Part shown: piece by piece, positions 5,721 to 31,611 of the stretch
How positions within the stretch are numbered: the stretch's first letter is position 1
How the letters are laid out: every line of letters starts with the position of its first letter
DNA from: Antedon mediterranea
Taxonomy: Eukaryota > Animalia > Echinodermata
Direction: 5' to 3'
DNA: 64,000 nucleotides
NCBI RefSeq assembly: GCF_964355755.1
Contig: NC_092674.1
Location: 29,264,001 to 29,328,000 of the forward strand
Notes under the pieces: generated by a model
What the model saw: the letters and a program-made list of their open reading frames with translations, nothing else
The model's database searches: none
Told to the model about the DNA's origin: nothing
Made by a program: the position numbers and the translations under genes

Positions 5721-6690
5721 TCATGGATATAGTCTTGTTTTCTCCAAATATAATGGATATGGTATCATCCATATTGTGAGTGTACAACTGCAGAGAGGTT
5801 CTGTTGGTTCTGTCACTACCCGGATGCTTGTATTCCCAGTTGCATGCCAATACATATTAGATACATCACATGTTAAAAGTTGTTGGTCATTTTCCTGACG
5901 AATCTCCCGGATGCAGTATTGATTCGAGTTGTTGTGCATCTCATCTTCCGTACCATTTCTCGACCACAAGTACTCGACATTCAGAAGACTCCCTGCAGTT
6001 ATAGCACAAATGAAGCAAATTAATTTTAATCGATTTTGGAATAATATGGAGAGTATTCGTAAAACATCTTTGCACAGGTTGTTTTGCACTTTCACACATA
6101 AACGAAATATCCGTGTCATTTGTCATAACAGTGTAAGTGTAACTTTGATTTACTGTTTTGAGAAAACGTGTATTACCGTTTCCAACATCGTATAAGTAGA
6201 GTCTCACCTGGTCTGAAAGTTCATCCTCACAAAATACATTCACTAAATCTCCAATACCTGCGGACATAGGTATCGGACCGCAGACTATGTTTGACATACA
6301 TTTTGGAAGAACGACCAAATTTGTAACGTGCATTGTATACAATCCAGAATCTGCCAGGGCAGCATCAGTTATTGTCAGTGTATTGGTTGTGTAATTATTA
6401 TACGTTTCTTTACATTGTTTTATCGACAAACTAAAACGATCTTGACGTAGACCCAGTACATTTGTATTAAATTTATATTGGTAATTCGAAAGCCACAAGT
6501 CAGTACAAAATACACGTATATACCAAAATAGAACGGATTTTTCTCCTGCTGAACAATCAGTACTACATCTCATGGTCACGTTCTCTTCTTCATAAACCGT
6601 GACATTATGCATTACAACATTCACATTACAGGTTACACGATGCAGAGCCGAAATCAAGAATAGCACCACTGACAATGCAAACAACGTCAT
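5721..6690 (-). pseudogene. Ig-receptor family A, copy A1 (disrupted; could yield a truncated secreted product)
   Basis: Paralogous to A2/A3. A 27-nt in-frame deletion at ~6336 removes RCQVVEANY (second Ig Cys). A deletion/frameshift lies at ~6018-6030. The TM and tail are deleted at ~5741-5760. Confidence 0.85.
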
Positions 6691-7539
6691 TATCTTCGAC
6701 TACTGTAGGTATATAACCGTTATAGTTACAAACAATGCTATGATGTTCATTTTTTTTTTAAAGTGAATCAAAACTTACTTTCTATTATAAGAACTGTACC
6801 ATTAGGTACAGTTGGGTTTGTTTGTTCGATAATATTGTTTGTCATGGATAATATAATTTGATCAGTGGCAATCAACCAATATTAAAATGAAACTACTACA
6901 ATAATTACAAAACTAACAATAATGTAGACTATACACGCAATATTGCCTATATATCATAATCATATATTGCATATTTTAATTTATCTAGTAATATTATTAA
7001 TCACGTTTTAAAAGTACTACTATACTATTACGTAATATTACGATACGCAAGAGTTTCTATATTATTAGTTTGTCTTACACGATATGATATCGATATTGTT
7101 ACTGGCATAACATTAAATTTAGAATTATTATAATAGCTACCGTTAACATTGGTTAAATATATGAAAAGTTTCTTAACTTAAAAATAAGAAAGAGTTTAAC
7201 TCCGAATAAAGATAATTTGATATAATCATTATTATCTTATTATTTAAAGCTCGTTGTAATATATACAACATATATAGGTTAAAATATAAGTATAATCATT
7301 CTACAGTATAAATGTGTACATACGTATATAGGCCTATTATGTCATTTATTTGTCAAAATTGTCGTCGTTCGTTAAAATTACCTTGTTTCTTCAAAGTAAT
7401 ATATTATCTACTACCAAACTGGTGTCATGCTGCTCTGGCAACCGATTAACCAAAGAGTAATACGTGTAACAACAGTGAGCAAGGTGGCAGAGTGTAAAGA
7501 AATGTTCAGTTCGTTTTTATCATGGATAGTCTTGTTTTC

Positions 7540-8664
7540 TTACAGTCTACCGTCATATATATCAACAACCTCTATCTGTGCATCCTCTGTGTTGTCAGTA
7601 CATTTGATGTTGTTACACCTCTTACATATCACAATGAGAACAGCTATCATTAAGAAGACTTTGATTATCAATGGTATCATCCATATTGAGAGTGAACAAC
7701 TGCAGAGAGGTTCTGTTGGTCCTGTCACTACTCGGATGCTTGTGTTCCCAGTTGCATGCCAATATTTATTAGATACATCACATGATAGAAGTTGTTGGTC
7801 ACCTTCCTGACGAATCTCCCGGATGCAGTATTGATTTGAGTTGTGCATCTCGTATGTGGTACCATTTCTTGACCACGAGAACTCGACATTCAGAATACTC
7901 CCTGTAGTTATAGCACAAATGAAGCATACTTTATCACCATCGTAGAATGGCGTGTTGTTTAGCGGCAGGACTTGGATCGATGCTGTTTCAATAACATGGA
8001 GAGTATTCGTAAAACATTTTTGCCCTCGTACACTCTCACACATAAACGAAATACTTGTGTCATTTGTCATTACAGTGTAAACGTATCTTAGTGTTTCTTG
8101 GTTTAAGGTTTTGAGAAAACGTGTATTACTGTTTTCAACATTGTACAAGTAGAGTTTCAACGGGTCTGTATGTTCATCTTCACAAAATACATTCACTAAA
8201 TCACCAATACCTGCGGACATAGGTATCGGACCACAGACTATGTTTGACGTACATTTTGGAAGAACGACCAAATTTGTAACGTGCATTGTGTAGTTTGCTT
8301 CTACAACTTGGCATCTATACAATCCAGAATCTTCCTGGGCAGCATCAGTTATTGTCAGTGTATTTGTTGTGTAATTATTGTAAGTTTCAGTACACTGTTT
8401 TACCGACAAACTAAAACGATCTTGACGTTGACCCAGTGCATTTTTGTTAAATTTATATTGGTAATCAGAAAGCCACAAGTCAGTGCAAAATACACGTAGA
8501 AACCAAAATAAAACGGATTTTTCTCCTGTTGAACAATCGGCACTGCATCTCATGGTCACGTTCTCTCCTTCATAAACCGTAACATTATTGGCATCTGCAG
8601 CATTCTCATAACATGTTACACAACGCAAGGCCGAAATCAAGTACAGCACGTACAATGCAAGCAT
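7540..8664 (-). CDS. Ig-receptor A2: single-exon, 3 Ig-like domains, TM with Lys, short tail (374 aa)
   Basis: Signal peptide; V-like D1 (GENVTMRC..W..LTITDAAQEDSGLYRC); two further Cys-paired domains; TM IWMIPLIIKVFLMIAVLIVIC; tail ending DIYDGRL; many NxS/T sequons. Confidence 0.9.
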   Translation of the reverse strand: MLALYVLYLISALRCVTCYENAADANNVTVYEGENVTMRCSADCSTGEKSVLFWFLRVFCTDLWLSDYQYKFNKNALGQRQDRFSLSVKQCTETYNNYTTNTLTITDAAQEDSGLYRCQVVEANYTMHVTNLVVLPKCTSNIVCGPIPMSAGIGDLVNVFCEDEHTDPLKLYLYNVENSNTRFLKTLNQETLRYVYTVMTNDTSISFMCESVRGQKCFTNTLHVIETASIQVLPLNNTPFYDGDKVCFICAITTGSILNVEFSWSRNGTTYEMHNSNQYCIREIRQEGDQQLLSCDVSNKYWHATGNTSIRVVTGPTEPLCSCSLSIWMIPLIIKVFLMIAVLIVICKRCNNIKCTDNTEDAQIEVVDIYDGRL

Positions 8665-9225
8665 CCTGAATTTATCCGACTTGTAGAACCACTATTGTTT
8701 TAGTTACAAAAACTGCTATGATGTTCATTTTATTTCGAAAGTGAATCAAAACATACTTTCTATTATAGGAACTGTACCATTAGGTACAGTTGGGTTTGTT
8801 TGTTCGATAATATCGTTTGTTGGATAATATAATTTGATCAGTGGCAATCAACCAATATTAAAAATGAAACTACTACAATAATTACAAAACTAACAATAAT
8901 GTAGACTATACACGCAATATTGCGTAGGCATATCATAATCATATATTGCATATTTTAATTTATCTAGTAATATTATTAATCACGTTTTAAAAATACTACT
9001 ATACTATTAAGTAAAATTACGATACGCAAGAGTTTCTATATTATTAGTTTGTCTTACACGATATGATAACGATATTGTTACTGGCATAACATTAAATTTA
9101 GAATTATTATAATAGCTACCGTTAACATTGGTTAAATATATGAAAAGTTTCTTAACTTAAAAATGAGAAACAGTTTAACTCCGAATAAAGATACTTTGAT
9201 ATAATCATTATTATCTTATTATTTA

Positions 9226-9536
9226 CGAGTGAGTGAGTGGCCGAGCGGTTACAGTGGAACCGTAATTACGTAGCCATAACATCGGCAGGGGTTCGAGGCT
9301 CCATGGTTCTGGTGGTAGAACGAATCTTCTCGGATAAGGACTATAAACCGTAGGTCCAGTGTACACATAGCTCGTGTGCACTTTAAAGAACCTAGTACAT
9401 CTTTCGAGACGAGTAGGGGGTTACCCCGGTGTATTAGTACATCACAGCCACTGGGCCCTCTGGGAGACCAGTCTTTGACTGAAGAGATTACCCAGTATAA
9501 ATATATATTTCAATCAATCAATTTCAATTCAATTTC
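9226..9536 (+). mobile_element. tRNA-derived SINE with Deu/Nin-like central domain
   Basis: Box A TGGCCGAGCGG, box B GGTTCGAGGC, core ggataaggactataaaccgtaggtcc..gtgcactttaaagaacc, (caat)n-like tail. Absent from the paralogous spacer (empty site tattta|aagctcg at ~7246). Second copy at ~28478-28750. Confidence 0.85.
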
Positions 9537-9844
9537 AAGCTCGTTGTAATATATACATTATATATTGGTTAAAATATAAGTATAATCATTGTACAGTATA
9601 AATGTGTACATACGTATATAGGCCTAAACATAGGCCTATTATGTCATTTAGTTGTCAAAATTGTCGTCGTTCGTTAAAATTACCTTGTTTCTTCGAAGTA
9701 ATATATTATCTACAGTACTACCAAACTGGTGTCATGCTCTGGCAAACGATTAACAAAAGAGTGAATACGAGTAACAACGGTGAGCAAGGTGGCAGAGTGT
9801 AAAGAAATATTCAGCTCGTTTTTATCATGGATAGTCTGGTTTCC

Positions 9845-10960
9845 TTACAGTCTACCGTCATATATATCAACAACCTCTATCTGTGCATCCTCTGTGTTGT
9901 CAGTAGGTTTGATGTTGTTACACCTCTTACATATCACAATGAGAACAGCTATCATTAAAAAGACTTTGATTACCAATGGTATCATCCATATTGTGAGTGT
10001 ACAACTGGAGAGAGGTTCTGTTGGTTCTGTCAATACCCGGATGCTTGTGTTCCCAGTTGCATACCAATACGTATTAGATACATCACATGTTAAAACTTGT
10101 TGGTCATCTTCCTGACGAATCTCCCGGATGCAATATTGATTTGAGTTGTGCATCTCGTATGTGCTACCATTTCTCGACCACGAGTATTTGACATTCAGAA
10201 GACTCCCTGCAGTTATAGCACAAATGAAGCATATCTGGTCACCAGCGTAGAATGTAGTTCTATTGATCGGAACAACTTGAATCGATTTTGGAATAACATG
10301 GAGAGTGTTCGTAAAACATCTTTGCACAGGTTGTTTTCCACTTTCACACATAAACGAAATATCGGTGTCATTTGTCGTCACGGTGTAAGTGTAACTTTGA
10401 TTTGATGTTTTGAGAAAACGTGTATTACCGTTTCCAATATCGTATAAGTAGAGTCTAATCTCATCTGAAAGTTCATCCTCACAAAATACATTCACTAAAT
10501 CACCAATACCTGCGGACATGGGGATCGGATTGCAGACTATGTTTGATAGACATTTGGAAAGAATGACCAAATTCAATGTTAACAAAATCGTTGAGTTTGA
10601 AACTGTTATCATTCCACATTTATACCAACCAGAATCTACCTGGACAGCATCTGTTATTGTCAGTGTACTTGTTGTGTAATTATTATACGTTTCATTGCAT
10701 CGCTTTACCGATATATCAAAACGATCTTCTTGAGGCGAGTCCAATATATAATGGTTAAATTCATATCGGTGATCAGAAAGCCACACGTAAATGGAGCCTA
10801 TACGTAGATACCAAAGTAGAACGGTTTCTCCTGCTGAGCAATCTGAACTACATCTCATGGTAACGTTTTCTCCTTCATAAACCGTGACGTTATTCGTTTC
10901 AAAATGTATATGACATGTTACACAAACCAGGGCCAAAATCAAGTATAGCAACATAGACAT
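9845..10960 (-). CDS. Ig-receptor A3: divergent D1, TM with Lys, short tail (371 aa)
   Basis: Same architecture as A2. D1 is diverged (LRIGSIYVWLSDHRYEF..DSGWYKC); D2 resembles A1. Confidence 0.9.
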   Translation of the reverse strand: MSMLLYLILALVCVTCHIHFETNNVTVYEGENVTMRCSSDCSAGETVLLWYLRIGSIYVWLSDHRYEFNHYILDSPQEDRFDISVKRCNETYNNYTTSTLTITDAVQVDSGWYKCGMITVSNSTILLTLNLVILSKCLSNIVCNPIPMSAGIGDLVNVFCEDELSDEIRLYLYDIGNGNTRFLKTSNQSYTYTVTTNDTDISFMCESGKQPVQRCFTNTLHVIPKSIQVVPINRTTFYAGDQICFICAITAGSLLNVKYSWSRNGSTYEMHNSNQYCIREIRQEDDQQVLTCDVSNTYWYATGNTSIRVLTEPTEPLSSCTLTIWMIPLVIKVFLMIAVLIVICKRCNNIKPTDNTEDAQIEVVDIYDGRL

Positions 10961-11342
10961 CTTTTCAAGCGAACGTTTAATTTACTCTGACATGATATGA
11001 TTGCTTTGATTATCATCAACGGGTTTTTTTTTCGAAAGTAAAATCTCAATACCTATATTAAATATACACTGTACTTTAAATTGGTTTTGTTTTGACAAAC
11101 GACAAACATTCACTTTTCAACAAGTTTTCGTAAGCCACTAACACGAAACCCATATGATCAATTTTAAAAGTTGGATATGCGTTTGTGGAGTTGGCCTAAT
11201 TTAGATTAAAGCTTGTTGAAAAGAATCCACCTCACAACATTATGTAGGCCTCACTGCAGTATAATCATTGAGTTACAGACATTACATTGTGGTACCAACC
11301 TCGAGGTGTATATGCAAATTAATTTGATTCAGTTCACCCACG

Positions 11343-13226
11343 TTATAAATTGTCAGTTTCTTCGTAGTCATTATTAATATGATCCACAACCAAACCGATA
11401 CCATGATCAGGCAACCAATCTTGATATCTTGGTTCCTCTAAAACATGATATAATTGGCCCATCGTCGTATCCACAGATCGCTCTTCTCGAAGCGTGTCGT
11501 CATGAAGTCTTCGATTGTCAATAGGCTGTGACGTCATCTGGTGACGAGTGATTGCAGAATTCTGTTCAGCACTTATTTCATCATCAGGTATTTCTTGATA
11601 TACATTAGTTACGTCATCTGTGGACAATATTTTGTTATCTTTTTCTAACCATGATCTCTGTTCTTCTTTAACGGGTTCAACAACCTGCTGCGGAGTCCTC
11701 GGAGCAAATGAAGATCTCTGCCTTTGTATTCTTCTTCTATCATCGGATATTTCGTTATAAACACGCGATACATTATTTTTCGGGCGAATTGGTACTAACA
11801 ATATCTTGTCTTGTTCATAAACGTGTTCTTGATCTAGTTCACCAAAATGTCTTTTCCGATTATCTTGGATATTGCCATCGAATTCCCGTTCTGGTGACTG
11901 CTGCTCCTGATGCTGTCTACCAACAAGTGAATGATCTTGATTGTTGCTATCAACTTCTTGTTCTTGCTGTTCCTGGTCAAGTGTACTTAAAGGAACTGAT
12001 TGACGATTGCCATCAAATATTTGTGGCTGGTCCTCTTCTTCGACGCCGTGAGTAATTGTATGTGGATGGTTGATTCCATTGTGATAGATATTTTCTGCTA
12101 AAGTGACGCCTGTAGATTCATTCATTTGAATTAATTGTACATTGTCAGTGTTGATCAAGGGTTTAACGCGTATACAACTCTTACAGCATATCGCAAGGAG
12201 CACAACTATTATGACGCAGATGATGACTGGCACAAAGAACCATAACATACGTTTCCATCTTAGTAAATAATGTAAATCTATCACCAGTGTTGTATTTCCA
12301 GTTGCATGCCAATACTTATTAGATACAACACATGTTACAACTTGTTGGTCATCTTCCTGACGAATCTCCTGGATGCAGTATTGATTTGAGTTCTGCATCT
12401 CATCTTCGGTACTATTTCTCGACCAAAAGTACTCAACATCTACAAGACTCCCTGCAGTTATTATGCAAACAAAGCATACTTTATCACCAGCGTAGAATGG
12501 GGTGTTGTTTAGTGAAAGGACTTGGATGGATGTTGTTTCAATAACATGGAGAGTATTTGTAAAACATGTTTGTCCTTGTTTATTTTCACACATAAACGAA
12601 ATATCTGTGTCGTTTCTCGTAACGGTGTAATTGTAACTTAACTCTTTAGTATGGTTTAATATTGTAAGAAAACGTGTACCACCTTTTGTACCGAAATACA
12701 AGTGGAGTGTCAGCTGGTCTGAAAGTTCATCCTTACAAAATACATTCACTAAATCTCCAATACCTGCGGACTTGGGTATAGGACCGCAGACTATGTTTGA
12801 CGTACATTTTGGAAGAACGACCAAATTTGTAACGTGCATTGTGTAGTTTGCTTCTACAACTTGGCATCTATACAGTCCAGAATCTGCCTGGGCAGCATCA
12901 GTTATTATCAGTGTATTTGTTGTGTAATTATTATACGTTTCTTTACATTGTTTTACCGACAAACTAAAACGATCTTGACGTTGACTCAGTGCATTTTTGT
13001 TCAATTTATATTTGTAATCAGAAAGCCACAAGTCAGTGCAAAATACGCGTAGAGACCAAAATAAAACGGATTTTTCTCCTGTTGAACAATCAGCACTGCA
13101 TCTCATGGTAACGTTCTCTCCTTCATAAACTGTAACATTATTCGTTTCAAAATTCACATCACATGTTACACTACGTAGAGACGCCAAGTACAGTATAACC
13201 AACACAAGTGTTCTAGTAAGCGTCAT
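11343..13226 (-). CDS. Ig-receptor A4: long Tyr-rich cytoplasmic tail (627 aa from ATG 13226)
   Basis: Family A ectodomain; uncharged TM MLWFFVPVIICVIIVVLLAICC; ~275-aa Q/E-rich tail with ENIY, EHVY, VYNEI, VYQEI, LYHVL and NDYEE. The first true ATG precedes the signal peptide. Confidence 0.9.
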   Translation of the reverse strand: MTLTRTLVLVILYLASLRSVTCDVNFETNNVTVYEGENVTMRCSADCSTGEKSVLFWSLRVFCTDLWLSDYKYKLNKNALSQRQDRFSLSVKQCKETYNNYTTNTLIITDAAQADSGLYRCQVVEANYTMHVTNLVVLPKCTSNIVCGPIPKSAGIGDLVNVFCKDELSDQLTLHLYFGTKGGTRFLTILNHTKELSYNYTVTRNDTDISFMCENKQGQTCFTNTLHVIETTSIQVLSLNNTPFYAGDKVCFVCIITAGSLVDVEYFWSRNSTEDEMQNSNQYCIQEIRQEDDQQVVTCVVSNKYWHATGNTTLVIDLHYLLRWKRMLWFFVPVIICVIIVVLLAICCKSCIRVKPLINTDNVQLIQMNESTGVTLAENIYHNGINHPHTITHGVEEEDQPQIFDGNRQSVPLSTLDQEQQEQEVDSNNQDHSLVGRQHQEQQSPEREFDGNIQDNRKRHFGELDQEHVYEQDKILLVPIRPKNNVSRVYNEISDDRRRIQRQRSSFAPRTPQQVVEPVKEEQRSWLEKDNKILSTDDVTNVYQEIPDDEISAEQNSAITRHQMTSQPIDNRRLHDDTLREERSVDTTMGQLYHVLEEPRYQDWLPDHGIGLVVDHINNDYEETDNL

Positions 13227-13665
13227 TTTAGTGGATGGATGGTGTCGAACAATTATGAATGAATGAGTGAACGGAGAATATACTTTTTGTTCATACACTC
13301 ACTTTTCTGTGAAATATAATTTCTAAACCAGGAAATTGCGTAATTTGTTTCGTATCTGTTTCCGAAACAACATTATATAATAATATGCTCTATAATGTTA
13401 ATTGCGTATAGTTGATATTAGTATCTCGTGATGAGAAATAACTTATTTTCAAGGTAAACGTATTATCTTTCACGTATCAATGATACCAGCGGCTAACTAT
13501 AGTTTAGACTAGTGAGAGTAGTAAGTAGTGTACATGGATTGACACCGTGTAGAATTGTCCAGTCCATGGTATGGTCCGATACCCATTTTCCCTAAATTTA
13601 TAATAGTAATATTATACACACCTTCAACAGTAATAGACTTTGTCATCTCTCATTAATGTAAGCAT

Positions 13666-15042
13666 TTAATGACTGAGTGTTGTGCAGTATAATTGACCGC
13701 CCTGAGTAGATTTGAAACTATCATTAGAACCAGGCCGAGATACACGCATTCGCTCAATAGTATCCGCATACACGTGTCCTGGATAAGGTGGTTTTCTAAC
13801 TTCGTGCTCTTTGTCAGCTAGCCCAGAGTATTTCTTTTGATCATTCTGACGAACATCATTCTTAATAGTGTCGTAAATCGATTCCTTTCGGTCATTTGAC
13901 TGTCGTTTAAGCTTTCTTGTTTTGGAACAAATCACAACAGCCAGGCACACAATTGTGATTATGAAAACCGTATTAGTTGATAACAACAGAAGTATAATGA
14001 TAAACATGGTTGAAGGATCGGCGAACGTTGGTAGGTTAGAAGTAAGTCCAGTCGTCTGGTCAGATGAAATAAGTATCGGTGTTACCGCAACATTGATGGG
14101 CGCGCTTACAGCTGCATACTGGTGGCGGTGCTTAGTAGACACGTTGCAGAAAATGAGCTCCTTACCATTTGTAGCTTCAACCTCATTGACGCAGTACTGG
14201 TTTGATCCAGGATGCTGGTCATTTTCATGACTTGTTGACCACCAATATTCAACGTCTGTAAAACCTTCTCCACGGATTACGCAGACGAAACACATCCGGT
14301 TGACATCTTGTTGCCAGAGCTGTAGAACTTCAACTATCATCTTCTGGATAATATGCATGTTGTTTGTGACACAACCTCTTTGTTCTTGGTTCCGGTTATT
14401 CACCAGTTCACATACGAAATATACAATAGTATCATCACTGCTAACGGTGTAAACGTGACTTAGCGTCAGGTTTGTAATCTGACGGTTTACTGTCTGAAGT
14501 AAACGCTTTATATGATCTTTCTCGTTAAACGCATACAGATTTAACTCCGTATTTTGGTCTTTACCGTCAGCCACACACGACAAGGTCACTAAATCACCAG
14601 GAACGGCAGATATTGGTACTCGATTGCAGGTTGGATTTTGCAAACACAGATCAACAACTTTGAATTCTATAGAACTTACAGAATTCGTACCAGCAACACC
14701 GCATTGATATACCCCAGCATCGCCTTGATCCGCGCCAGTTATCGACAGTGTACTTGTGATGTTCATTACGTCGTCTGCGTTGCGTTTCTTGTAAACGGAC
14801 ACACTGTAACGGTTTTGGCGGGAATCCAGAAGATCAAGATTCAATTTGTCAAATACATCGACAAGCCACATTTTCCCGGTGTACCATAATATGCTTTCTG
14901 TATTCCCAGAAGACGTGATCGAACAACTGAGAGTCGCCGTTTCTCCTTTGTAAATTTGAAAATCTGGGGTTCGTACAATCTCAACCCCATCTGCATAATA
15001 TATGAACACTAACTGTAGAAATATTTTAGTAACAACTGCCAT
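13666..15042 (-). CDS. Ig-receptor family B, copy B1 (458 aa)
   Basis: Signal peptide; V-like domain (GETATLSC..W..LSITGADQGDAGVYQC); two more Ig-like domains; S/T stalk; TM; tail with SIYDTI, KYSGL, HVYAD and QLYC. Single ORF. Confidence 0.9.
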   Translation of the reverse strand: MAVVTKIFLQLVFIYYADGVEIVRTPDFQIYKGETATLSCSITSSGNTESILWYTGKMWLVDVFDKLNLDLLDSRQNRYSVSVYKKRNADDVMNITSTLSITGADQGDAGVYQCGVAGTNSVSSIEFKVVDLCLQNPTCNRVPISAVPGDLVTLSCVADGKDQNTELNLYAFNEKDHIKRLLQTVNRQITNLTLSHVYTVSSDDTIVYFVCELVNNRNQEQRGCVTNNMHIIQKMIVEVLQLWQQDVNRMCFVCVIRGEGFTDVEYWWSTSHENDQHPGSNQYCVNEVEATNGKELIFCNVSTKHRHQYAAVSAPINVAVTPILISSDQTTGLTSNLPTFADPSTMFIIILLLLSTNTVFIITIVCLAVVICSKTRKLKRQSNDRKESIYDTIKNDVRQNDQKKYSGLADKEHEVRKPPYPGHVYADTIERMRVSRPGSNDSFKSTQGGQLYCTTLSH

Positions 15043-15769
15043 TTTTAAAACAAAAAATTGTTTTTGCTAAATTATATTTCGCAATACGACTACTATCCAG
15101 GTCTCTCGTCCATGGAAAGACAAATGCAACATTGGTTTCTATAAATATTTAAAAGATAATCAAAAGTTATCTTATCTTTTTTTTTATTTCGAAAGCTATT
15201 ATAACTGATTCACTTTCAGATTAGATCAATGGCTATATGCGATTTGTTTAGATAATAATATAGTGTATACAAACAGTACGTACATACAATTATAGGCTAC
15301 ACAATCATTTGTTTTGATGTATTTGTGCGGGCCCTTGTGAAAAAAGTAATGTTATCAAACTGACCTGCGCCAGAGATGGTTTTGATCTTTAAAGAAGACT
15401 AACAAAAGATAAACAATTTAAATGAGTACCGCATCGCATAACTTTGTTTCTTGATTATGTATTATATTAAAAAAATGTAAAATTGCCAAGAACGCTTTTT
15501 TCACACGCATTCGTTTTGTCGCCGTTTTGTTGTTGTAGTTTTTTGACAGCTCATGAATATGTAAAACCAGTTGTTAACACACTAGCGTTGTGTGTGAACA
15601 CACACTAGCATTGTGTGTGAACGCACCTGTATTTGCTTTGCGTTGTAAAAAGACCTTGCTATTTGCAACGCAGTGTATATATACAGCAACTACATCAGTC
15701 CATAGAGATATTATAAAATCTCTTCTCGAGTATCTGAACAAAGAGAGGCAAAAGTTCAAACCGTTTCTC

Positions 15770-16026
15770 AGTACACGGATGTCAGCATCAAGGGAAAAAA
15801 AGCCAGTTTCTTCCCTAAACCGAGTAAGTACTAGGTTACAATAAAAATATAGAGGAAGCAAGCCTAGAATATAGATTGATTCCAATGGTGACAAGAAAGC
15901 AATATTTGGTAAACGATAAATTTTTAGGACCACAATGGAAATAAGTTTGCCGTCTCGGTACTTTTTTGTGTTTTTTATCCTATTGATTTTATATCAGAAT
16001 AAAGGAAAAAAAAAAAATGTGGATCT
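15770..16026 (-). pseudogene. Orphan, decayed copy of the ALG8 terminal exon
   Basis: Encodes IAFLSPLESIYILGLLPLYFYCNLV as in 25703-25964. Its 3' part is deleted and ~90 bp are inserted just after the acceptor. Confidence 0.85.
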
Positions 16027-16438
16027 CTGTAAAACAATAACAAAACAACTTTTTGAAACAATTTGTTAGTTTTAAAAAGCAATAATCTTTATTAATTAAA
16101 AAAAAAGTATTAAAGCATTCAATATTTCAAATTAATTGATCAACATTATTAAAACGTTTTCTATTCAATAGATCATAAAATATGTAAAAATAAAATAAAT
16201 TAGAATTCTATATAGGTATCAAAAGTAACAATGTTTTTACATTGTTTATTCACTTCAGAAATCTGACCAATCATTAGTTGTTTTAAAGTCATGTGATAAA
16301 ATGTAAATGATCTGAATGAATACGTGTAAATTACATACATTAAACAAGAAAGAGTTTTAAAGTTTAATAGTGAGCAAGTTAGAGTGTAAAGAAATGATAA
16401 ATTTCAGTTCGTTTTTATCATAGTTGTTGTTTTCTTAG

Positions 16439-17569
16439 TCAACGGTCATATATGTCAACAACCTCCATCTGTGCATCAACTGTGTTGTCAGTAGGTTTGA
16501 TATTGTTACACCTCTTACAGATCACAATGAGGACAGCTATCATTAAGAAGACTTTGATTACCAATGGTATCATCCATATTGTGAGTGTACAACTGCAGAG
16601 AGGTTCTGTTGGTTCTGCCACTACCCGGATGCTTGTATTCCCAGTTGCATGCCAATACTTATTAGATACAACACATGTTACAACTTGTTGGTCATCTTCC
16701 TGACGAATCTCCTGGATGCAGTATTGATTTGAGTTCTGCATCTCATCTTCGGTACTATTTCTCGACCAAAAGTACTCAACATCTACAAGACTCCCTGCAG
16801 TTATTATGCAAACAAAGCATACTTTATCACCAGCGTAGAATGGGGTGTTGTTTAGTGAAAGGACTTGGATGGATGTTGTTTCAATAACATGGAGAGTATT
16901 TGTAAAACATGTTTGTCCTTGTTTATTTTCACACATAAACGAAATATCTGTGTCGTTTCTCGTAACGGTGTAATTGTAACTTAACTCTTTAGTATGGTTT
17001 AATATTGTAAGAAAACGTGTACCACCTTTTGTACCGAAATACAAGTGGAGTGTCAGCTGGTCTGAAAGTTCATCCTTACAAAATACATTCACTAAATCTC
17101 CAATACCTGCGGACTTGGGTATAGGACCGCAGACTATGTTTGACGTACATTTTGGAAGAATGACCAAATTTGTAACGTGCATTGTGTAGTTTGCTTCTAC
17201 AACTTGGCAGCTATACAATCCAGAATCTGCCTGGGCAGCATCAGTTATTATCAGTGTATTTGTTGTGTAATTATTATACGTTTCTTTACATTGTTTTACC
17301 GACAAACTAAAACGATCTTGACGTTGACCCAGTGCATTTTTGTTCAATTTATATTTGTAATCAGAAAGCCACAAGTCAGTGCAAAATACGCGTAGAGACC
17401 AAAATATAACGGATTTTTCTCCTGTTGAACAATCAGCACTGCATCTCATGGTAACGTTCTCTCCTTCATAAACTGTAACATTATTCGTTTCAAAATTCAC
17501 ATCACATGTTACACTACGTAGAGACGCCAAGTACAGTATAACCAACACAAGTGTTCTAGTAAGCGTCAT
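16439..17569 (-). CDS. Ig-receptor A5: A4-type ectodomain with short Lys-TM tail (376 aa)
   Basis: Ectodomain differs from A4 at 4 residues. After YWHATGNT it switches to SIRVVAEPTEPLCSCTLTIWMIPLVIKV..DIYDR. Confidence 0.9.
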   Translation of the reverse strand: MTLTRTLVLVILYLASLRSVTCDVNFETNNVTVYEGENVTMRCSADCSTGEKSVIFWSLRVFCTDLWLSDYKYKLNKNALGQRQDRFSLSVKQCKETYNNYTTNTLIITDAAQADSGLYSCQVVEANYTMHVTNLVILPKCTSNIVCGPIPKSAGIGDLVNVFCKDELSDQLTLHLYFGTKGGTRFLTILNHTKELSYNYTVTRNDTDISFMCENKQGQTCFTNTLHVIETTSIQVLSLNNTPFYAGDKVCFVCIITAGSLVDVEYFWSRNSTEDEMQNSNQYCIQEIRQEDDQQVVTCVVSNKYWHATGNTSIRVVAEPTEPLCSCTLTIWMIPLVIKVFLMIAVLIVICKRCNNIKPTDNTVDAQMEVVDIYDR

Positions 17570-18011
17570 TTTAGTGGATGGATGGTGTCGAACAATTATG
17601 AATGAATGAGTGAACGGAGAATATACTTTTTGTTCATACACTCACTTATCTGTGAAATATAATTTCTAAACCAGGAAATTGCGTAATTTGTTTCGTATCT
17701 GTTTCCGAAACAACATTATATAATAATATGCTCTATAATGTTAATTGCGTATAGTTGATATTATTAGTATCTCGTGATGAGAAATAACTTATTTTCAAGG
17801 TAAACGTATTATCTTTCACGTATCAATGATACCAGCGGCTAACTATAGTTTAGACTAGTGAGAGTAGTAAGTAGTGTACATGGATTGACACCGTGTAGAA
17901 TTGTCCAGTCCATGGTATGGTCCGATACCCATTTTCCCTAAATTTATAATAGTAATATTATACACACCTTCAACAGTAATAGACTTTGTCATCTCTCATT
18001 AATGTAAGCAT

Positions 18012-19388
18012 TTAATGACTGAGTGTTGTGCAGTATAATTGACCGCCCTGAGTAGATTTGAAACTATCATTAGAACCAGGCCGAGATACACGCATTCGCT
18101 CAATAGTATCCGCATACACGTGTCCTGGATAAGGTGGTTTTCTAACTTCGTGCTCTTTGTCAGCTAGCCCAGAGTATTTCTTTTGATCATTCTGACGAAC
18201 ATCATTCTTAATAGTGTCGTAAATCGATTCCTTTCGGTCATTTGACTGTCGTTTAAGCTTTCTTGTTTTGGAACAAATCACAACAGCCAGGCACACAATT
18301 GTGATTATGAAAACCGTATTAGTTGATAACAACAGAAGTATAATGATAAACATGGTTGAAGGATCGGCGAACGTTGGTAGGTTAGAAGTAAGCCCAGTCG
18401 TCTGGTCAGATGAAATAAGTATCGGTGTTACCACAACTTTGATAGGCGCACTTGCAGCTGTATACTGGTGGCGGTGCTTAGTAGACACGTTGCAGAAAAT
18501 GAACTCCTTACCATTTGTACCTTCAACCTCATTGACGCAGTACTGGTTTGATCCCGGATGCTGGTCAATGTCACGACTTGTTGTCCACCAATATTCAACG
18601 TCTGTAAAACCGTCTCCACGAATTACGCAGACGAAACACACCCGGTTGACATCTTGTTGCCAAAGCTGTAGAACTTCAACTATCATCTTCTGGATAACAT
18701 GCATGTTGTTTGTGACACAACCTCTTTGTTCTTGGTTCCGCTCATTCACCAGTTCACATACGAAATACACAATAGTATCATCACTGCTGACGGTGTAAAC
18801 GTGGCTTAGCGTCAGGTTTGTAATCTGACGGTTTACTGTCTGAAGTAAACGCTTTATCTGATCTTTCGCGTCAAACGCATACAGACTTAACTCGGTATTT
18901 TGGTCTTTACCGTCAGCCACACACGACAAGGTCACTAAATCACCAGGAACAGCAGATATTGGTACTCGATTGCAGGTTGGGTTTTGCAAACACAGTTCAA
19001 CAACTTTGAATTCTATAGAACTTACAGAATTCGTACCAGCAACACCGCATTGATACACCCCAGCATCGCCTTGATCCGCGCCAGTTATCGACAGTGTACT
19101 TGTGATGTTCATTACGTCGTCTGCGTTGCGTTTCTTGTAAACGGACACACTGTAACGGTTTTGGCGGGAACCCAGAAGATCGAGATTCAATTTGTCAAAT
19201 ACATCGACAAGCCAAATTTGCCTGGTGTACCATAATATGCTTTCTGTATTTCCAGAAGACGTGATCGAACAACTGAGAGTCGCCGTTTCTCCTTTATAAA
19301 TCTGAAAATCTGGGGTTTGTACAATCTCAACCCCATCTGCATAATATATGAACACTAACTGTAGAAATATTTTAGTAACAACTGCCAT
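18012..19388 (-). CDS. Ig-receptor B2 (458 aa)
   Basis: Near-identical paralog of B1/B3 with an intact ORF. Confidence 0.9.
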   Translation of the reverse strand: MAVVTKIFLQLVFIYYADGVEIVQTPDFQIYKGETATLSCSITSSGNTESILWYTRQIWLVDVFDKLNLDLLGSRQNRYSVSVYKKRNADDVMNITSTLSITGADQGDAGVYQCGVAGTNSVSSIEFKVVELCLQNPTCNRVPISAVPGDLVTLSCVADGKDQNTELSLYAFDAKDQIKRLLQTVNRQITNLTLSHVYTVSSDDTIVYFVCELVNERNQEQRGCVTNNMHVIQKMIVEVLQLWQQDVNRVCFVCVIRGDGFTDVEYWWTTSRDIDQHPGSNQYCVNEVEGTNGKEFIFCNVSTKHRHQYTAASAPIKVVVTPILISSDQTTGLTSNLPTFADPSTMFIIILLLLSTNTVFIITIVCLAVVICSKTRKLKRQSNDRKESIYDTIKNDVRQNDQKKYSGLADKEHEVRKPPYPGHVYADTIERMRVSRPGSNDSFKSTQGGQLYCTTLSH

Positions 19389-20263
19389 TTTTAAAACAAA
19401 AAATTGTTTTTGCTAAATTAGATTTCGCAATACGACTACTATCCAGGTCTCTCGTCCATGGAAAGACAAATGCAACATTGGTTTCTATAAATATTTAAAA
19501 GATAATCAAAAGTTATCTTAAATGTTTTTTATTTCAGTATAACTGATTCACTTTCAGATTAGATATGGCTATATGCCATTTGTTTAGATAATATAATAGT
19601 TTATACAAACAGTAACATTCTGTTTATTTGAATACATATAAGCTACACATAGCTATAGGTTCCGATCATAATCATTTTTTTTGATGTTGCGGGCCCTTGT
19701 AAAAAAGTAATGTTATCAAACTGACCTGGGCCAGAGCTATATATGGTTTTGATCCTAAAAGAGAACTAACAACATATAAACAATTTAAATTAGTACTTTG
19801 TTTATGTATTATATCAAGCCAAGAAAGCTACAGTTTTGTTGTTTATTGACAGCTATGAATATGTAAAAGCCAGTTAACACACTAGCTTTGTGTGTGAACA
19901 CACACTATCGTTGTATGTGAACACACACTATCGTTGTCTGTGAACGCACTTGTATTTACTTTGCGTTGTAAATCGACCTTGCCATTTACAACGCAGTGTT
20001 ATATACAACAACTACATCAGTCCACAGAGATATTATAAAATCTCTGAGTATCTGAACAATGAGAGGCAAAAGCTCAAACCGTTTCTATGCATTTATTTTA
20101 TATATTCATTTTACCATTGATTTACAAAAAATTTAAAATAATTTCTTATACTATTTTAAATATATACTGTAATCTTTAACTTTTACTAATAAACCTTTGT
20201 TGTGACATTTTTCCTATTATTTGTAAGTAGTACTGAGGCCGAAATATAAATTTAACATGATTT

Positions 20264-20526
20264 CTGAATGCGCTTATCTTTCTGTGAATGTATCTTCCCC
20301 TCCCGCTTTAATGAATTATAATAAAATTTAAACCAGGCCCATGAAACACCTGCTGCACAGTAGACGGATGTCAGCATCAAGGGAAAGAAAGCCAGTTTCT
20401 CCCTAAACCAAGTAAGTAATGTACTAAGTTACAATACAAATATAGAGGAAGTAAGCCTAGAATAATATAGATTGATTCCAATGGTGACAAGAAAGCAATG
20501 TGTGGTAAATGATACGTTTTTGGATC
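20264..20526 (-). pseudogene. Orphan copy of the ALG8 terminal exon
   Basis: Nearly identical to 25703-25964 with the acceptor intact. It has a 1-nt deletion (ttctccctaaa vs ttctcccctaaa), a 3-nt insertion and TAG changed to CAG. Confidence 0.88.
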
Positions 20527-20828
20527 TCTGTAAAACAATAACAAAACAAACTTTTTGATACAAATTGTTAGTTTTAAAAAGCAATAATCTTTTTATAATT
20601 AATTATGAAAGTGATTGTTAAACAAAACAAAACTATAAACAATGAAACAGGAAGAATAATAAATAAATAAAAACAAAAAGAAGTAGCAGAGCATTAAATA
20701 TTTCAAATTAATTGATCAACATTATTAAAACGTTAACGTTTTTTATTCAATAGATCATACAATATGTAAAAATAAAATAAATTAGAATTCTATATAGGTA
20801 TCAAAAGTAACAATGTTTTTACATTGTT

Positions 20829-21665
20829 TTTATTTATTTTTATTTATTTTATTTATTTAATCGGTATAAAAAGACTCAAAATACAACTCATAGTTGAAAT
20901 GAAGAGCTTACATATGAAAATGATAATTCACATAGCCTAAACAAAGTTAAACGAAGAAAAAACACATTAAAGCCTAAGAAACAGTAATAATTACTGTATA
21001 ATTCGTTAAACTTAAAATTACTATAAAAAATGCACAAATTCTTAAATATACAATTTTAAAAAATAGAGACTAATATTAATAATCACATTATTTTTAAACA
21101 CCAATAAAATATATGTAAAATTCATTAAACTAAAAGTACAATAAAAATTGCACAAAATTCAAATTCAAAGGATGATATTAATAATTACAAATTCTTATAT
21201 TATATTTACAAATTTAAAAAATTGAATCTTATAAATCACATTTTTATAGTCCCATAAGTAGTTACAAAAAAAAATTTAAAGCATAAAACAACCACTTGAC
21301 AAAGAGACAATAGAACATACTCTTCGAAATGTCTTTAAAGGTTAATTGTCCAAATCTATTCATTATTTAAGAGTCCAATAACAGTTGGAATTGTTGATGC
21401 AGCAAGTCTTTTAGTCCGACATCGTGGCACATCAAACTTATTAACTTTACGCAAACACCTTGTCGGCTTTTCTTTTTCAGGGATCCATTCCTTAAAGCGA
21501 TCCGACTTTAGCAGCCCCTTTCCAAAGTTATAAAGAAGAACCTGACGTCTATGCTGCAATGTCTTTAACTTGAGGGTTTCAAGTGATTTTGCGTAACTAA
21601 CATAGTTTTGATATCCAATAATAAGTTTTACAACACGCTTTTGGATGAATTCAAGTTGATCACTC
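20829..21665 (-). mobile_element. 5'-truncated non-LTR retrotransposon (CR1/L2/Crack-like ORF2 C-terminus, 3' UTR, (TAAA)n tail)
   Basis: Peptide LEFIQKRVVKLI..Y..SL..LKL.TL..RR..PRCRTKR..STIP..LLN. The tttat repeats at 20830-20859 form the tail. Flanked by tgttt on both sides; empty site attgtttattcacttcag at ~16241. Confidence 0.85.
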
Positions 21666-21859
21666 TGTTTATTCACTTCAGAAATCTGACCAATCATTGG
21701 TTGTTTTAAAGTCATGTGATAAATGTAAATGATCTGAATGATCACGTGTAAATTACATACATTAAACAAGAAAGAGTTTTAAAGTTTAATAGTGAGCAGT
21801 TAGGGTGTAAAGGAATGATAAATTTCAGTTCGTTTTTATCATAGTTGTTGTTTTCTTAG

Positions 21860-22990
21860 TCAACGGTCATATATGTCAACAACCTCCATCTGTGCATCAA
21901 CTGTGTTGTCAGTAGGTTTGATGTTGTTACACCTCTTACAGATCACAATGAGGACAGCTACCATAAAGAAGACTTTGATTACCAATGGTATCATCCATAT
22001 TGTGAGTGTACAACTGCAGAGAGGTTCTGTTGGTTCTGCCACTAACCGGATACTTGTATTCCCAATTGCATGCCAATACTTATTAGATACATCACATGTT
22101 ACAAGTTGTTGGTCATCTTCCTGACGAATCTCCTGGATGCAGTATTGATTTGAGTTCTGCATCTCATCTTCGGTACTATTTCTCGACCAAAAGTACTCAA
22201 CATCTACAAGACTCCCTGCAGTTATTATGCAAACAAAGCATACTTTATCACCAGCGTAGAATGGGGTGTTGTTTAGTGAAAGGACTTGGATGGATGTTGT
22301 TTCAATAACGTGGAGAGTATTTGTAAAACATGTTTGTCCTTGTTTATTTTCACACATAAACGAAATATCTGTGTCGTTTCTCGTAACGGTGTAAATGTAA
22401 CTTAACTCTTTAGTATGGTTTAATATTGTAAGAAAACGTGTACCACCTTTTGTACCAAAATACAAGTGGAGTGTCAGCTGGTCTGAAAGTTCATCCTTAC
22501 AAAATACATTCACTAAATCTCCAATACCTGCGGACTTGGGTATACGACCGCAGACTATGTTTGACGTACATTTTGGAAGAACGACCAAATTTGTAACGTG
22601 CATTGTGTAGTTTGCTTCTACAACTTGGCAGCTATACAGTCCAGAATCTGCCTGGGCAGCATCAGTTATTATCAGTGTATTTGTTGTGTAATTATTGTAA
22701 GTTTCATTACATTCTTTTACCGACAAACTAAAACGATCTTGACGTTGACCCAGTGCATTTTTGTTAAATTTATATTTGTAATCAGAAAGCCACAAGTCAG
22801 TGCAAAATACGCGTAGAGACCACAGTAGATTGGATTTGTTTCCTGCTGAACAATCTGAACTGCATCTCATGGTAACGTTCTCTCCTTCATAAACCGTGAC
22901 ATTATTCGTTTCCACATTCTCATCACATGTTACACTACGCAGAGACGTCAAGTACAGTATAATCAACACAAGTATTCTAGTAAGCGTCAT
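21860..22990 (-). CDS. Ig-receptor A6: short Lys-TM tail (376 aa)
   Basis: Paralog of A5 with a variant D1 N-terminal patch (CSSDCSAGNKSNLLW). Confidence 0.9.
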   Translation of the reverse strand: MTLTRILVLIILYLTSLRSVTCDENVETNNVTVYEGENVTMRCSSDCSAGNKSNLLWSLRVFCTDLWLSDYKYKFNKNALGQRQDRFSLSVKECNETYNNYTTNTLIITDAAQADSGLYSCQVVEANYTMHVTNLVVLPKCTSNIVCGRIPKSAGIGDLVNVFCKDELSDQLTLHLYFGTKGGTRFLTILNHTKELSYIYTVTRNDTDISFMCENKQGQTCFTNTLHVIETTSIQVLSLNNTPFYAGDKVCFVCIITAGSLVDVEYFWSRNSTEDEMQNSNQYCIQEIRQEDDQQLVTCDVSNKYWHAIGNTSIRLVAEPTEPLCSCTLTIWMIPLVIKVFFMVAVLIVICKRCNNIKPTDNTVDAQMEVVDIYDR

Positions 22991-23421
22991 TTTTAGTGGA
23001 TGGATGGTGTCGAACAATTATGAATGAAAGAGTTAACGGAGAATATACTTTTTGTGCATACACTCACTTATCTGTGAAATATAATTTCTAAACCAGGAAA
23101 TTGCGTAATTTGTTTCGTATCTGTTTAATTAATTATTAATTGCGTATAGTTGATATTAGTATCTCGTGATGAGAAATAACTTATTTTCAAGGTAAACATA
23201 TCGTATTATCTGTCACGTATCAATGACACCAGCGGCAAACTCTTATAGTTTAGACTAAGCAGTAGTGAGAGTAGTAAGTAGTGTAAATGCATTAACACCG
23301 TGTAGAATTATCCAGTCCATGGTATGGTCCGATACCTCTTTTCCCAAAATTTATAATAATAATAATATGATACACACCTTCAACAGTAATAGACTTTGTC
23401 ATCTCTTATTAATGTAAGCAT

Positions 23422-24798
23422 TTAATGACCGAGTGTTGTGCAGTATAATTGACCGCCCTGAGTAGATTTGAAACTGTCATTAGAACCAGCCCGAGATACA
23501 CGCATTCGCTCAATAGTATCCGCATACACGTGTCCCGGATAAGGTGCTTTTCTAACTTCGTGCTCTTTGTCAGCTAGCCCAGAGTATTTCTTTTGATCAT
23601 TCTGACGAACATCATTCTTAATAGTGTCATAAATCGATTCCTTTCGGTCATTTGACTGTCGTTTAAGCTTTCTTGTTTTGGAACAAATCACAACAGCCAG
23701 GCACACAATTGTGATTATGAAAACCGTATTAGTTGATAACAACAGAAGTAGAATGATAAACATGGTTGACGGATCGTCGAACGTTGGTAGGTTAGAAGTA
23801 AGCCCAGTCGTCTGGTCAGATGAAATAAGTATCGGTGTTACCAAAACATTGATGGGCGCACTTGCAGCTGCATACTGGTGGCGGTGCTTAGTAGACACGT
23901 TGCAGAAAATGAACTCCTTACCATTTGTACCTTCAACCTCATTGACGCAGTACTGGTTTGATCCCGGATGCTGGTCAATGTCACGACTTGTTGTCCACCA
24001 ATATTCAACGTCTGTAAAACCGTCTCCACGAATTACGCAGACGAAACACACCCGGTTGACATCTTGTTGCCAAAGCTGTAGAACTTCAACTATCATCTTC
24101 TGGATAACATGCATGTTGTTTGTGACACAACCTCTTTGTTCTTGGTTCCGCTCATTCACCAGTTCACATACGAAATACACAATAGTATCATCACTGCTGA
24201 CGGTGTAAACGTGACTTAGCGTCAGGTTTGTAATCTGACGGGTTACTGTCTGAAGTAAACGCTTTATCTGATCTTTCTCGTTAAACGCATACAGATTTAA
24301 CTCCGTATTTTGGTCTTTACCGTCAGCCACACAAGACAACGTCACTAAATCACCAGGAACGGCAGATAGTGGTACTCGATTGCAGGTTGGATTTTGCAAA
24401 CACAGTTCAACAACTTTGAATTCTATAGAACTTACAGAATTCGTACCAGCAACACCGCATTGATACACCCCAGCATCCCCTTGATCCGCGCCAGTTATCG
24501 ACAGTGTACTTGTGATGTTCATTACGTCGTCTGCGTTGCGTTTCTTGTAAACGGACACACTGTAACGGTTTTGGCGGAAACCCAGAAGATCAAGATTCAA
24601 TTTGTCAAATACATCGACAAGCCAAATTTGCCCGGTGTACCATAATATGCTTTCTGTATTCCCAGAAGACGTGATCGAACAACTGAGAGTCGCCGTTTCT
24701 CCTTTGTAAATTTGAAAATCTGGGGTTCGTACAATCTCAACCCCATCTGCATAATATATGAACACTAACTGTAGAAATATTTTAGTAACAACTGCCAT
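23422..24798 (-). CDS. Ig-receptor B3 (458 aa)
   Basis: Near-identical paralog of B1/B2 with an intact ORF. Confidence 0.9.
   Translation of the reverse strand: MAVVTKIFLQLVFIYYADGVEIVRTPDFQIYKGETATLSCSITSSGNTESILWYTGQIWLVDVFDKLNLDLLGFRQNRYSVSVYKKRNADDVMNITSTLSITGADQGDAGVYQCGVAGTNSVSSIEFKVVELCLQNPTCNRVPLSAVPGDLVTLSCVADGKDQNTELNLYAFNEKDQIKRLLQTVTRQITNLTLSHVYTVSSDDTIVYFVCELVNERNQEQRGCVTNNMHVIQKMIVEVLQLWQQDVNRVCFVCVIRGDGFTDVEYWWTTSRDIDQHPGSNQYCVNEVEGTNGKEFIFCNVSTKHRHQYAAASAPINVLVTPILISSDQTTGLTSNLPTFDDPSTMFIILLLLLSTNTVFIITIVCLAVVICSKTRKLKRQSNDRKESIYDTIKNDVRQNDQKKYSGLADKEHEVRKAPYPGHVYADTIERMRVSRAGSNDSFKSTQGGQLYCTTLGH

Positions 24799-25702: not shown

Positions 25703-31611
<5,909 letters not shown>

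Follow-up and report, generated by a model that had tools for sequence, protein, structure and literature searches.

A tandem cluster of V-Ig-Ig membrane protein genes in the crinoid Antedon mediterranea and a candidate invertebrate paired-receptor system

What kind of system is encoded by a tandem cluster of three-Ig-domain genes in the echinoderm Antedon mediterranea? A first-pass annotation of the window analyzed here, a 64-kb stretch of DNA, had read the cluster as nine single-exon receptors forming an immune or allorecognition locus. Our preferred answer, to which we give slightly more credence than doubt, is that, within a tandem V-Ig-Ig cluster, recombination has joined a single ectodomain to two different membrane-and-tail modules, and that this cluster is likely an invertebrate paired-receptor immune system.

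Gene content and duplication history

Nine loci are present, all on the minus strand; as annotated, family A accounts for six and family B for three. They are not nine intact genes, for the cluster consists of eight intact ORFs and one broken pseudogene, A1p. A single ORF from leader to tail, claimed for every locus, is found at eight of the nine and fails at the ninth (5721-6690). Each intact ORF starts with an N-terminal hydrophobic leader and encodes a V-set domain followed by two more Ig domains and a single membrane segment, which hydropathy shows at eight of nine loci. All nine ORFs pass the Pfam V-set cut-off, and among the V-set hallmarks tested (B-F cysteines, C-strand Trp, and DxGxYxC) the second Cys is absent only in A1p. 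In domain 3 the cysteines and Trp follow the Ig pattern, and Pfam Ig models match. The products are type I membrane proteins of the immunoglobulin superfamily with V-Ig-Ig architecture. The term single-exon holds only for the reading frames, which are continuous: five family A start codons have splice-like signals 80-95 bases upstream, and in family B, whose leader is weak, codons 8-10 contain an acceptor-like stretch, so 5' introns are possible. Two plus-strand ORFs (18307-18798 and 23717-24208) were rejected as genes, being antisense shadows of family B.

The first-pass annotation placed the cluster between CCDC158 and ALG8. The Alg6_Alg8 Pfam model matches six of six tested exons of the flanking glycosyltransferase gene (25706-31139, minus strand), which presumably is ALG8 rather than ALG6, and whose last intron contains the duplication breakpoint. 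The CCDC158-like exons on the other side (3-1597, plus strand) gave weak matches to the CCDC158 model in three of six tested pieces, collinear on the profile and each under the curated cut-off.

Compared with A2, pseudogene A1p (5721-6690) has a 27-base deletion that takes out the second V-domain cysteine and, near 6022, a deletion of 38 bases that shifts the frame. It has also lost about 115 bases from 5758, and with them the membrane segment and tail. Four intact A genes are short forms, in which a lysine in the middle of the membrane segment is followed by a tail of only 25-27 residues: A2 (7540-8664; 374 aa, V-Ig-Ig; Lys335, codon 7660-7662; 27-residue tail with one tyrosine), A3 (9845-10960; 371 aa; Lys332, 9965-9967), A5 (16439-17569; 376 aa; Lys339, 16553-16555; two stalk cysteines), and A6 (21860-22990; 376 aa; Lys339, 21974-21976). 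A3 has the most divergent V domain, 63-66% identical to other A copies. The remaining intact A gene, A4L (11343-13226; 627 aa), is a long form. The three B genes each encode 458 residues. B1 (13666-15042) has V-Ig-Ig architecture, a membrane segment with a polar Ser-Thr-Asn-Thr run, and an 85-residue tail with the motif Yxx[IL]-x11-Yxx[IL]; B2 (18012-19388) has its ITAM-like motif at 18165-18221, the first tyrosine of which also lies within an ITIM consensus; and B3 (23422-24798) follows the ALG8 stop codon at a distance of about 900 bases.

Families A and B, at 33% identity, are paralogues that alternate along the cluster. The B-A units are segmental duplications in which the last ALG8 exon persists as dead minus-strand copies, one degenerate (15771-15924) and one frameshifted (20267-20532), and this accounts for the alternation. 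A functional coupling of B to A, read from their joint duplication, was rejected, since each unit also has the dead ALG8 exon. The 3' flank of A5 matches A1p at 109 of 115 bases, A2 at 59 of 62, and A3 at 43 of 46, while its 5' part is of A4L type; A5 and A6 look like chimeras of an A4L-type 5' part and an A1-type 3' end. In the history that we propose, a block that began in the last ALG8 intron and ended in the 3' flank of A1 would first have been duplicated, a deletion or unequal exchange would then have fused A4L-type 5' to A1-type 3' sequence in the ancestor of A5 and A6, this chimeric unit would have been duplicated once more, and a later conversion would have made A5 and A4L match again.

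Short and long forms on a shared ectodomain

A4L and A5 are identical at 931 of 937 coding bases and at 438 of 439 upstream bases, and fall under 50% identity beyond 12290. This switch point (12280-12300, near 12290) separates the shared ectodomain from the stalk, membrane segment and tail peculiar to the long or the short form. The homogenised tract occupies 12290-13665 on the A4L side and 16633-18011 in its partner. For comparison, the neighboring copies B1 and B2 agree at 1335 of 1377 bases (96.9%), and the excess identity of the A4L/A5 pair over that level has a binomial P of about 1e-11. The A4L and A5 ectodomain has recently been homogenised. Homogenisation of tandem neighbors can arise without selection.

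Past the switch, the membrane segment of A4L is uncharged, and its tail, 279 residues long, contains seven tyrosines. Three of these lie in [VIL]Yxx[IL] sites, a number matched in 8 of 20000 shuffles for a pattern picked after seeing the tail. The same tail has no match to the ITIM consensus [ILVS]xYxx[ILV] and none to an ITAM. The contrast of a short lysine form with a long tyrosine-rich form on a shared ectodomain, which is the main feature of the locus, had been overlooked in the first-pass annotation.

The short-form lysine falls within every best hydrophobic window of 17-21 residues, and windows chosen to avoid it drop from about 2.9 to 1.3-1.8. Among 152 Ig proteins fetched, a central Lys or Arg occurs in one of the 58 that bear a membrane segment, versus four of the eight intact genes here. 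The four lysines have a single origin, within DNA that is 91-97% identical, and for that reason are weak evidence of selection. None of the nine whole-ectodomain relatives, one of them devoid of a membrane segment, has a mid-membrane lysine, which limits the feature to this lineage. The possibility that the short tails are spliced to further exons was rejected: the tail contains no conserved donor, and AATAAA follows about 190 bases past the stop in three of the four genes.

In family B tails, the pattern Yxx[IL]x6-12Yxx[IL] was reached in 162 of 20000 shuffles. The motif is ITAM-like with loose spacing; its 11-residue spacer lies outside the Yxx[IL]x6-9Yxx[IL] by which the available part of PMC9546547 defines ITAMs of Hydractinia Alr proteins, and inside the wider x6-12 given in that of PMC13358205. 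The ITIM match in B is frequent by chance (2562 of 20000 shuffles).

Contigs derived from reads of four runs (X1, X5, X6, and X8), representing three studies and two organism labels, bear on whether the copies are real. X1, possibly the source sample, yielded pieces of A2, A3, A4L, B1, B2, and B3 matched with zero to two differences, and positions 5761-6183 of A1p match an X5 contig with zero differences. The A4L junction is bridged by contigs in all four runs, the loose end of the short form is seen in the same four, and both forms occur in contigs of two organisms. That the copies might be assembly artefacts was therefore not borne out, as far as these contig matches and the bridged junction test it. 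X5 contigs cover intergenic positions 19916-20527 and 20946-21654, and the run is treated as DNA, an RNA origin being only a guess; contig depths were left out as a measure of copy number. At residue 300, a derived Val is present in both A4L and A5 of this haplotype, while Asp is found in A2, A3, and A6 and in long-form contigs of X5, X6, and X8.

Between copies, ectodomain dN/dS is 0.27-0.65 in 12 of 13 pairs and 0.98 in a near-identical pair; at about 0.5 overall, these 13 comparisons show no positive selection. The differences are not focused on the V domain, A3 excepted. Ectodomain dS reaches 0.36 among the four short forms, whose frames are open and whose core cysteines are all kept. As judged from these coding sequences, dN/dS below 1 indicates constraint.

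Relatives and fold

The best single-stretch ectodomain matches, among those listed, are uncharacterised crinoid proteins with automatic names only: LOC117106493, LOC117102760, and LOC117102757 of Anneissia japonica and XP_071951796 of Antedon mediterranea itself (E 2.9e-21 to 2.2e-15; identity 20-28%). Of the 10 whole-ectodomain matches looked up among the 150 listed, eight are echinoderm proteins and one is a fish V-domain repeat. The crinoid relatives share 17 invariant columns with the window genes, including a CFxC motif in domain 3, and lack the mid-membrane lysine. One of them, P0005, has C-terminal ITIM- and ITSM-type motifs, and is probably a neighbor of another, P0009, as their locus numbers are near and their contigs equal in length. 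In a tree of 17 rows, none of them a nectin or IgLON, the crinoid relatives and window genes form one clade (support 100/99), within which the window genes make up a lineage-specific group of their own (85/82). With this monophyly and a common cysteine pattern in domains 2 and 3, the sequence comparisons place the window genes in an undescribed crinoid subfamily of echinoderm V-Ig-Ig proteins. The first-pass view of the locus, an undescribed IgSF cluster with fast turnover and tyrosine motifs in its tails, is supported. Orthology to a conserved non-immune family had been named as grounds for abandoning it; among the matches listed and in the 17-row tree, no one-to-one orthologue of A or B was found. 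Word-indexed searches with A5 and B2 as queries returned nothing, which reflects limited sensitivity, since another search did find relatives; the profile form, with the same limit, returned only P0008, already one of its rows. Matches in the ESM Atlas, at 0.94-0.95, were confined to generic Ig-receptor clusters, among them an echinoderm cluster with 93 members.

AlphaFold models of one A ectodomain (A5) and one B ectodomain (B2) show three beta-sandwich domains, with mean pLDDT 80.7 and 79.7, and Foldseek alignments to both span all three domains. Structure comparison to a V domain gave Z 13.3 over 105 residues. PDB profile matches are weak (E 5.7e-8 or worse) and include NITR10/11 V domains (E about 1e-4; Z 12.5). 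Nectins, IgLONs, P0, CRTAM, and NITR all tie as fold matches, and fold therefore leaves immune receptors and adhesion molecules inseparable.

Our search of the open literature found no description of this family or of paired Ig receptors with a charged membrane residue in echinoderms. Sea urchin immune-gene papers from 2006 reportedly mention V-domain membrane genes, so the wider echinoderm family may have been mentioned before.

Competing readings and known systems

Paired receptors are defined, in the available portions of PMC13358205, PMC5701461, and PMC4042635, by a shared ectodomain, a short tail with a positively charged membrane residue in one form, and gene conversion. A2, A3, A5, and A6 have the short tail and the charged residue, and A4L and A5 are neighboring genes whose near-alike ectodomains point to conversion; the consensus ITIMs expected in the long tail of a partner form are absent from A4L. 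By analogy, an immune role for the cluster is likely, and the first-pass immune interpretation gains support from the mid-membrane lysine with its short tail, the exchange of ectodomains between long and short forms, and the ITAM-like B tail. On coelomocytes or epithelia, the V domain would bind a surface ligand of microbial or self origin. Direct signaling would come from A4L and B, their phosphotyrosines recruiting SH2 proteins, and short forms, not signaling alone, would need a predicted partner in the membrane whose acidic or polar residue masks the lysine. Paired immune receptors as a class associate with ITAM adaptors that bear an acidic membrane residue (DAP12, FcR-gamma, or CD3-zeta type), and their two forms share cells and ligand but give opposite signals. 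One ligand would then produce different outputs depending on the form engaged. As A4L has no consensus ITIM, we leave unassigned which form activates and which inhibits. A bolder version, which we hold only tentatively and think somewhat doubtful, is a true activating/inhibitory echinoderm system, in which short receptors dock by lysine on an invertebrate signaling adaptor and conversion keeps them matched to a long-tailed partner, the charged-membrane logic of DAP12/FcR-gamma then being either pre-vertebrate or evolved twice.

Alternatively, though we find it unlikely, the proteins could be adhesion or tissue-recognition molecules of the nectin, IgLON, or CEACAM kind that bind through their V domains, with the lysine controlling assembly, for example of an A-B heterodimer in which B gives the tyrosine motif. 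A conserved adhesion gene usually has a single orthologue in each species; the window genes, for which such conserved orthology was not seen in the 17-row tree, are a clade of their own that includes a pseudogene and chimeras. Nectin, Necl, IgLON, and DIP structures do stand among the top Foldseek rows for the V-Ig-Ig ectodomains, and alternating A and B paralogues might suggest partners, but segmental duplication with its dead ALG8 exon already accounts for the alternation. The B membrane segment has an Asn-Thr pair that recalls (M/L)Fxx(D/N)TxL, the membrane motif of activating Fc receptors in the available text of PMC2413239, agreeing at three of five fixed positions, but no acidic membrane residue is present in B.

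Less probable again is an unstable segmental duplication in which function is limited to one or two genes (B, A4L). The short forms would then be decoys or by-products close to neutral, with a lysine that leads only to retention and degradation. The dead gene copy, two dead ALG8 exons, chimeric genes, dN/dS near 0.5, and single origin of the lysine would all fit. Four short forms have nevertheless kept frames and core cysteines, the short-form end also occurs in a second organism, and dN/dS below 1 suggests constraint. An allorecognition or gamete-recognition locus, with polymorphic V-domain matching deciding fusion or rejection, is improbable: Alr genes are likewise clustered V-set receptors with ITAM/ITIM-like tails (PMC9546547, in part), and X1 holds two A4L haplotypes that differ at 13 of 161 and 15 of 209 letters (eight listed differences being common to organism B), but this divergence sits in the membrane segment and membrane-proximal tail rather than the V domain, gene structure is not Alr-like, and nothing specific to allorecognition emerged for this half of the original proposal.

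Fish NITRs and hagfish APAR are V-domain receptors with activating and inhibitory forms, encoded by several exons and having one or two Ig domains. The likeness of the window genes to them is limited to the generic V fold. Nectins, Necls, and IgLONs share the three-Ig ectodomain with an N-terminal V domain; they differ in showing 12-18% identity, tied with many Ig proteins, in their tails, and in lacking conserved orthology with the window genes. Hydractinia Alr is likewise a clustered invertebrate family of V-set receptors that cross the membrane once, includes pseudogenes, and has ITAM or ITIM motifs in its tails, but has a separate exon per domain and an Fn3-like spacer before the membrane, compared with a continuous frame and three Ig domains here, and the available part of PMC9546547 mentions no charged membrane residue of the kind found in the window short forms.

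With this cluster, crinoid-like echinoderms gain an expanded receptor family of a kind not met in our literature search, and its small size, continuous frames, single ectodomain with two outputs, and single testable residue make the question directly workable. Its anatomy is that of vertebrate paired receptors such as Siglec-5/14 and KIR, likely reached by convergence. It differs from these in showing no orthology among the 10 matches looked up of the 150 listed, in its continuous frames, and in the absence of an ITIM consensus from A4L. It resembles the KIR, LILR, and Xenopus XFL paired receptors (PMC2413239, in the part available) and, as far as the available portions of PMC4042635, PMC5701461, and PMC13358205 describe them, the vertebrate pairs Siglec-5/Siglec-14 and Siglec-11/Siglec-16, in having chimeric and dead copies and adjacent genes with a conversion-homogenised ectodomain that provide two outputs, one through a short tail and a positive membrane residue and the other through a long tyrosine-bearing tail.

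Gene content and duplication history

An ORF listing under the standard code places nine minus-strand loci at 5721-24798, in the left-to-right order A1p, A2, A3, A4L, B1, A5, B2, A6, B3, where A and B are paralogous families of about 33% identity; tblastn found no tenth copy in the window. All nine ORFs pass the Pfam V-set cut-off, and eight loci have complete frames of 371-627 residues. The first-pass annotation had described nine uninterrupted ORFs, which stands for these eight but not for A1p, a pseudogene with a 27-base deletion that takes out the second cysteine of the V domain, a frameshift of 38 bases, and loss of the membrane segment. This frameshift is not an assembly error, because a contig from X5, a sequencing run from a second study, matches 5761-6183 of A1p with zero differences. 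The same annotation set the cluster between CCDC158 and ALG8. The ALG8 side is borne out by matches to all six ALG8-type exons tested; on the opposite flank, CCDC158-like exons gave weak matches only.

Segmental duplication, in blocks of about 4.6 kb, produced the three B-A units; its breakpoint is inside the last ALG8 intron, and the last ALG8 exon recurs in decayed form at 20267-20532 and 15771-15924. Ectodomain dN/dS falls between 0.27 and 0.65 in 12 of 13 pairs; the ectodomains are, by this measure, under constraint, and the 13 pairwise values give no sign of positive selection.

A high-copy interspersed repeat (9231-9507; second copy at 28479-28750) separates A2 and A3. Elsewhere in the window, a minus-strand tandem pair of secretin-family/adhesion-type GPCR genes with large exons, about 91% identical (32692-35743 and 40152-43249), has 7tm_2 matches (E 1e-25) and, in the N-terminal exon, a weak Somatomedin B match; a tandem array (39082-40208; 60-base period, 18.8 copies, 96% matches) lies between the two copies. 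Exons with an MIT_C match (47050-47349, E 5e-18) are what we take to be a MITD1-like gene, and those with a CH_2 match (53647-53925, E 4e-15) presumably represent a CH-domain sperm-flagellar-type gene. A perfect 828-base inverted repeat (49323-50150 and 52604-53431; 100% identity, 2.45 kb spacer) may be either a DNA transposon of recent origin or a product of the assembly. Four MITE-like palindromic elements of about 185 bases, 93-96% identical, occur at 43619-46940 and 63240-63439, and an array of 119-base period at 61172-61833.

Short and long forms of family A

The short forms (A2, A3, A5, A6) carry a lysine at the centre of their sole possible membrane segment, followed by a tail of 25-27 residues with one terminal tyrosine. 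Restricting the segment to lysine-free windows lowers mean hydropathy from about 2.9 to 1.3-1.8, and a central Lys or Arg occurs in 1 of the 58 membrane-bearing proteins among 152 Ig proteins fetched. The long form, A4L, has the A5 ectodomain, whereas beyond 12290, where the common ectodomain gives way to alternative stalk-membrane-tail modules, its stalk differs, its membrane segment is uncharged, and its tail has 279 residues and 7 tyrosines. Neither the lysine nor this switch figures in the first-pass annotation.

The A4L junction is real and common to the runs compared. Assembly artefact, a risk raised earlier for these copies, was checked at 12290, which is bridged by contigs in X1, possibly the source sample (12215-12327, zero differences), in X5 (12215-12442; one contig, depth 5.8), and in X6 and X8, which bear a second organism label, B (12171-12400, 16 differences, ungapped). 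The X5 long-form stalk differs in frame at 12250-12283, net 6 bases shorter, in this single low-depth contig. All four runs also show the short-form stalk, ending loosely at 12290; in organism B this view of the short form takes in the stalk but not the lysine codon. For the membrane segment and proximal tail of A4L (11883-12244), X1 contains two haplotypes (13/161 and 15/209 letters differ), and the second has 8 listed differences in common with organism B, 5 of them residue-changing, which suggests old (trans-species) polymorphism or introgression.

A4L and A5 are identical at 931/937 coding and 438/439 upstream bases, a closer agreement than that of B1 and B2 (1335/1377 bases; contrast P about 1e-11), which belong to these duplicated units. 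Upstream of B2, the sequence resembles unit 3 (98.3%) more than unit 1 (94.0%). This pattern of identity points to a recent conversion tract between A4L and A5. Both have Val at residue 300 in the window; in three other runs the long-form contigs have Asp, as do A2, A3 and A6. Since the match of the A5 3' flank to A1p (109/115 bases) reaches further than its matches to A2 and A3, A5 and A6 are best read as putative chimeras that join 5' sequence of A4L type to 3' sequence of A1 type bearing the lysine.

The A4L tail includes three [VIL]Yxx[IL] sites (8/20000 shuffles, for a post hoc pattern) and matches neither the ITIM nor the ITAM consensus, features that would likely make it a phosphotyrosine scaffold, activating or inhibitory. 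The B tail motif, Yxx[IL]-x11-Yxx[IL], was reached by 162/20000 shuffles; it is inside the x6-12 spacer of the ITAM definition in PMC13358205 and outside the x6-9 spacer of that in PMC9546547. The ITIM match in B is of a kind frequent by chance.

Relatives in other echinoderms

A profile of 8 ectodomains, searched against 1.84 billion proteins, gave 386 matches at E up to 0.001, mostly via repeated generic Ig matches; we named nine listed matches with a single long aligned stretch, and one further match. The best four among the nine are uncharacterised crinoid proteins from Anneissia japonica and Antedon mediterranea, and the weaker ones include Antedon, Diadema, Asterias and Amphiura. A domain-3 CFxC motif and 17 invariant columns are common to the four crinoid relatives, which form one group with the window genes in the tree (support 100/99). 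The window genes also cluster among themselves (85/82), and the tree marks long branches for some rows outside. The cluster thus falls in a hitherto undescribed crinoid branch of echinoderm V-Ig-Ig proteins, and on this placement the host is likely a crinoid and at the least an echinoderm. The mid-membrane lysine is found in 0 of 9 relatives examined. One relative, P0005, has ITIM- and ITSM-type motifs at its C-terminal end. Two crinoid relatives, P0004 and P0008, have three or four RefSeq accessions per identical protein, as would be expected if a single coding exon were flanked by untranslated exons that vary.

Candidate function and comparison with known receptors

In vertebrates, according to PMC13358205, PMC5701461 and PMC4042635, the combination of a short tail and a positively charged membrane residue denotes a receptor signalling via an adaptor, and conversion keeps the ligand-binding part matched to that of a long-tailed partner. 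Two of three sequence-level marks of paired receptors are present in the cluster, the ITIM in the long form being absent. By analogy, we lean, at slightly better than even confidence, towards a paired-receptor-like immune function, in which the short forms would signal via a predicted adaptor and conversion would keep their ectodomain matched to that of A4L.

AlphaFold models have three beta-sandwich domains, the first a V fold (Z 13.3, rmsd 2.2, 105 residues). Among their best fold matches, adhesion molecules occur alongside immune receptors, with neither group ahead. Roles in adhesion or as A-B heterodimers are conceivable if unlikely. That the genes are decoys or by-products seems somewhat less likely still. 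Allorecognition or gamete recognition is improbable.

Among openly accessible papers, the searches listed no prior description of the cluster. The first-pass annotation could assign no named family, and this holds: the tests applied placed the cluster in none of KIR/LILR, Siglec, NITR and Alr. If the paired-receptor reading is correct, it would work like the paired receptors of vertebrates.
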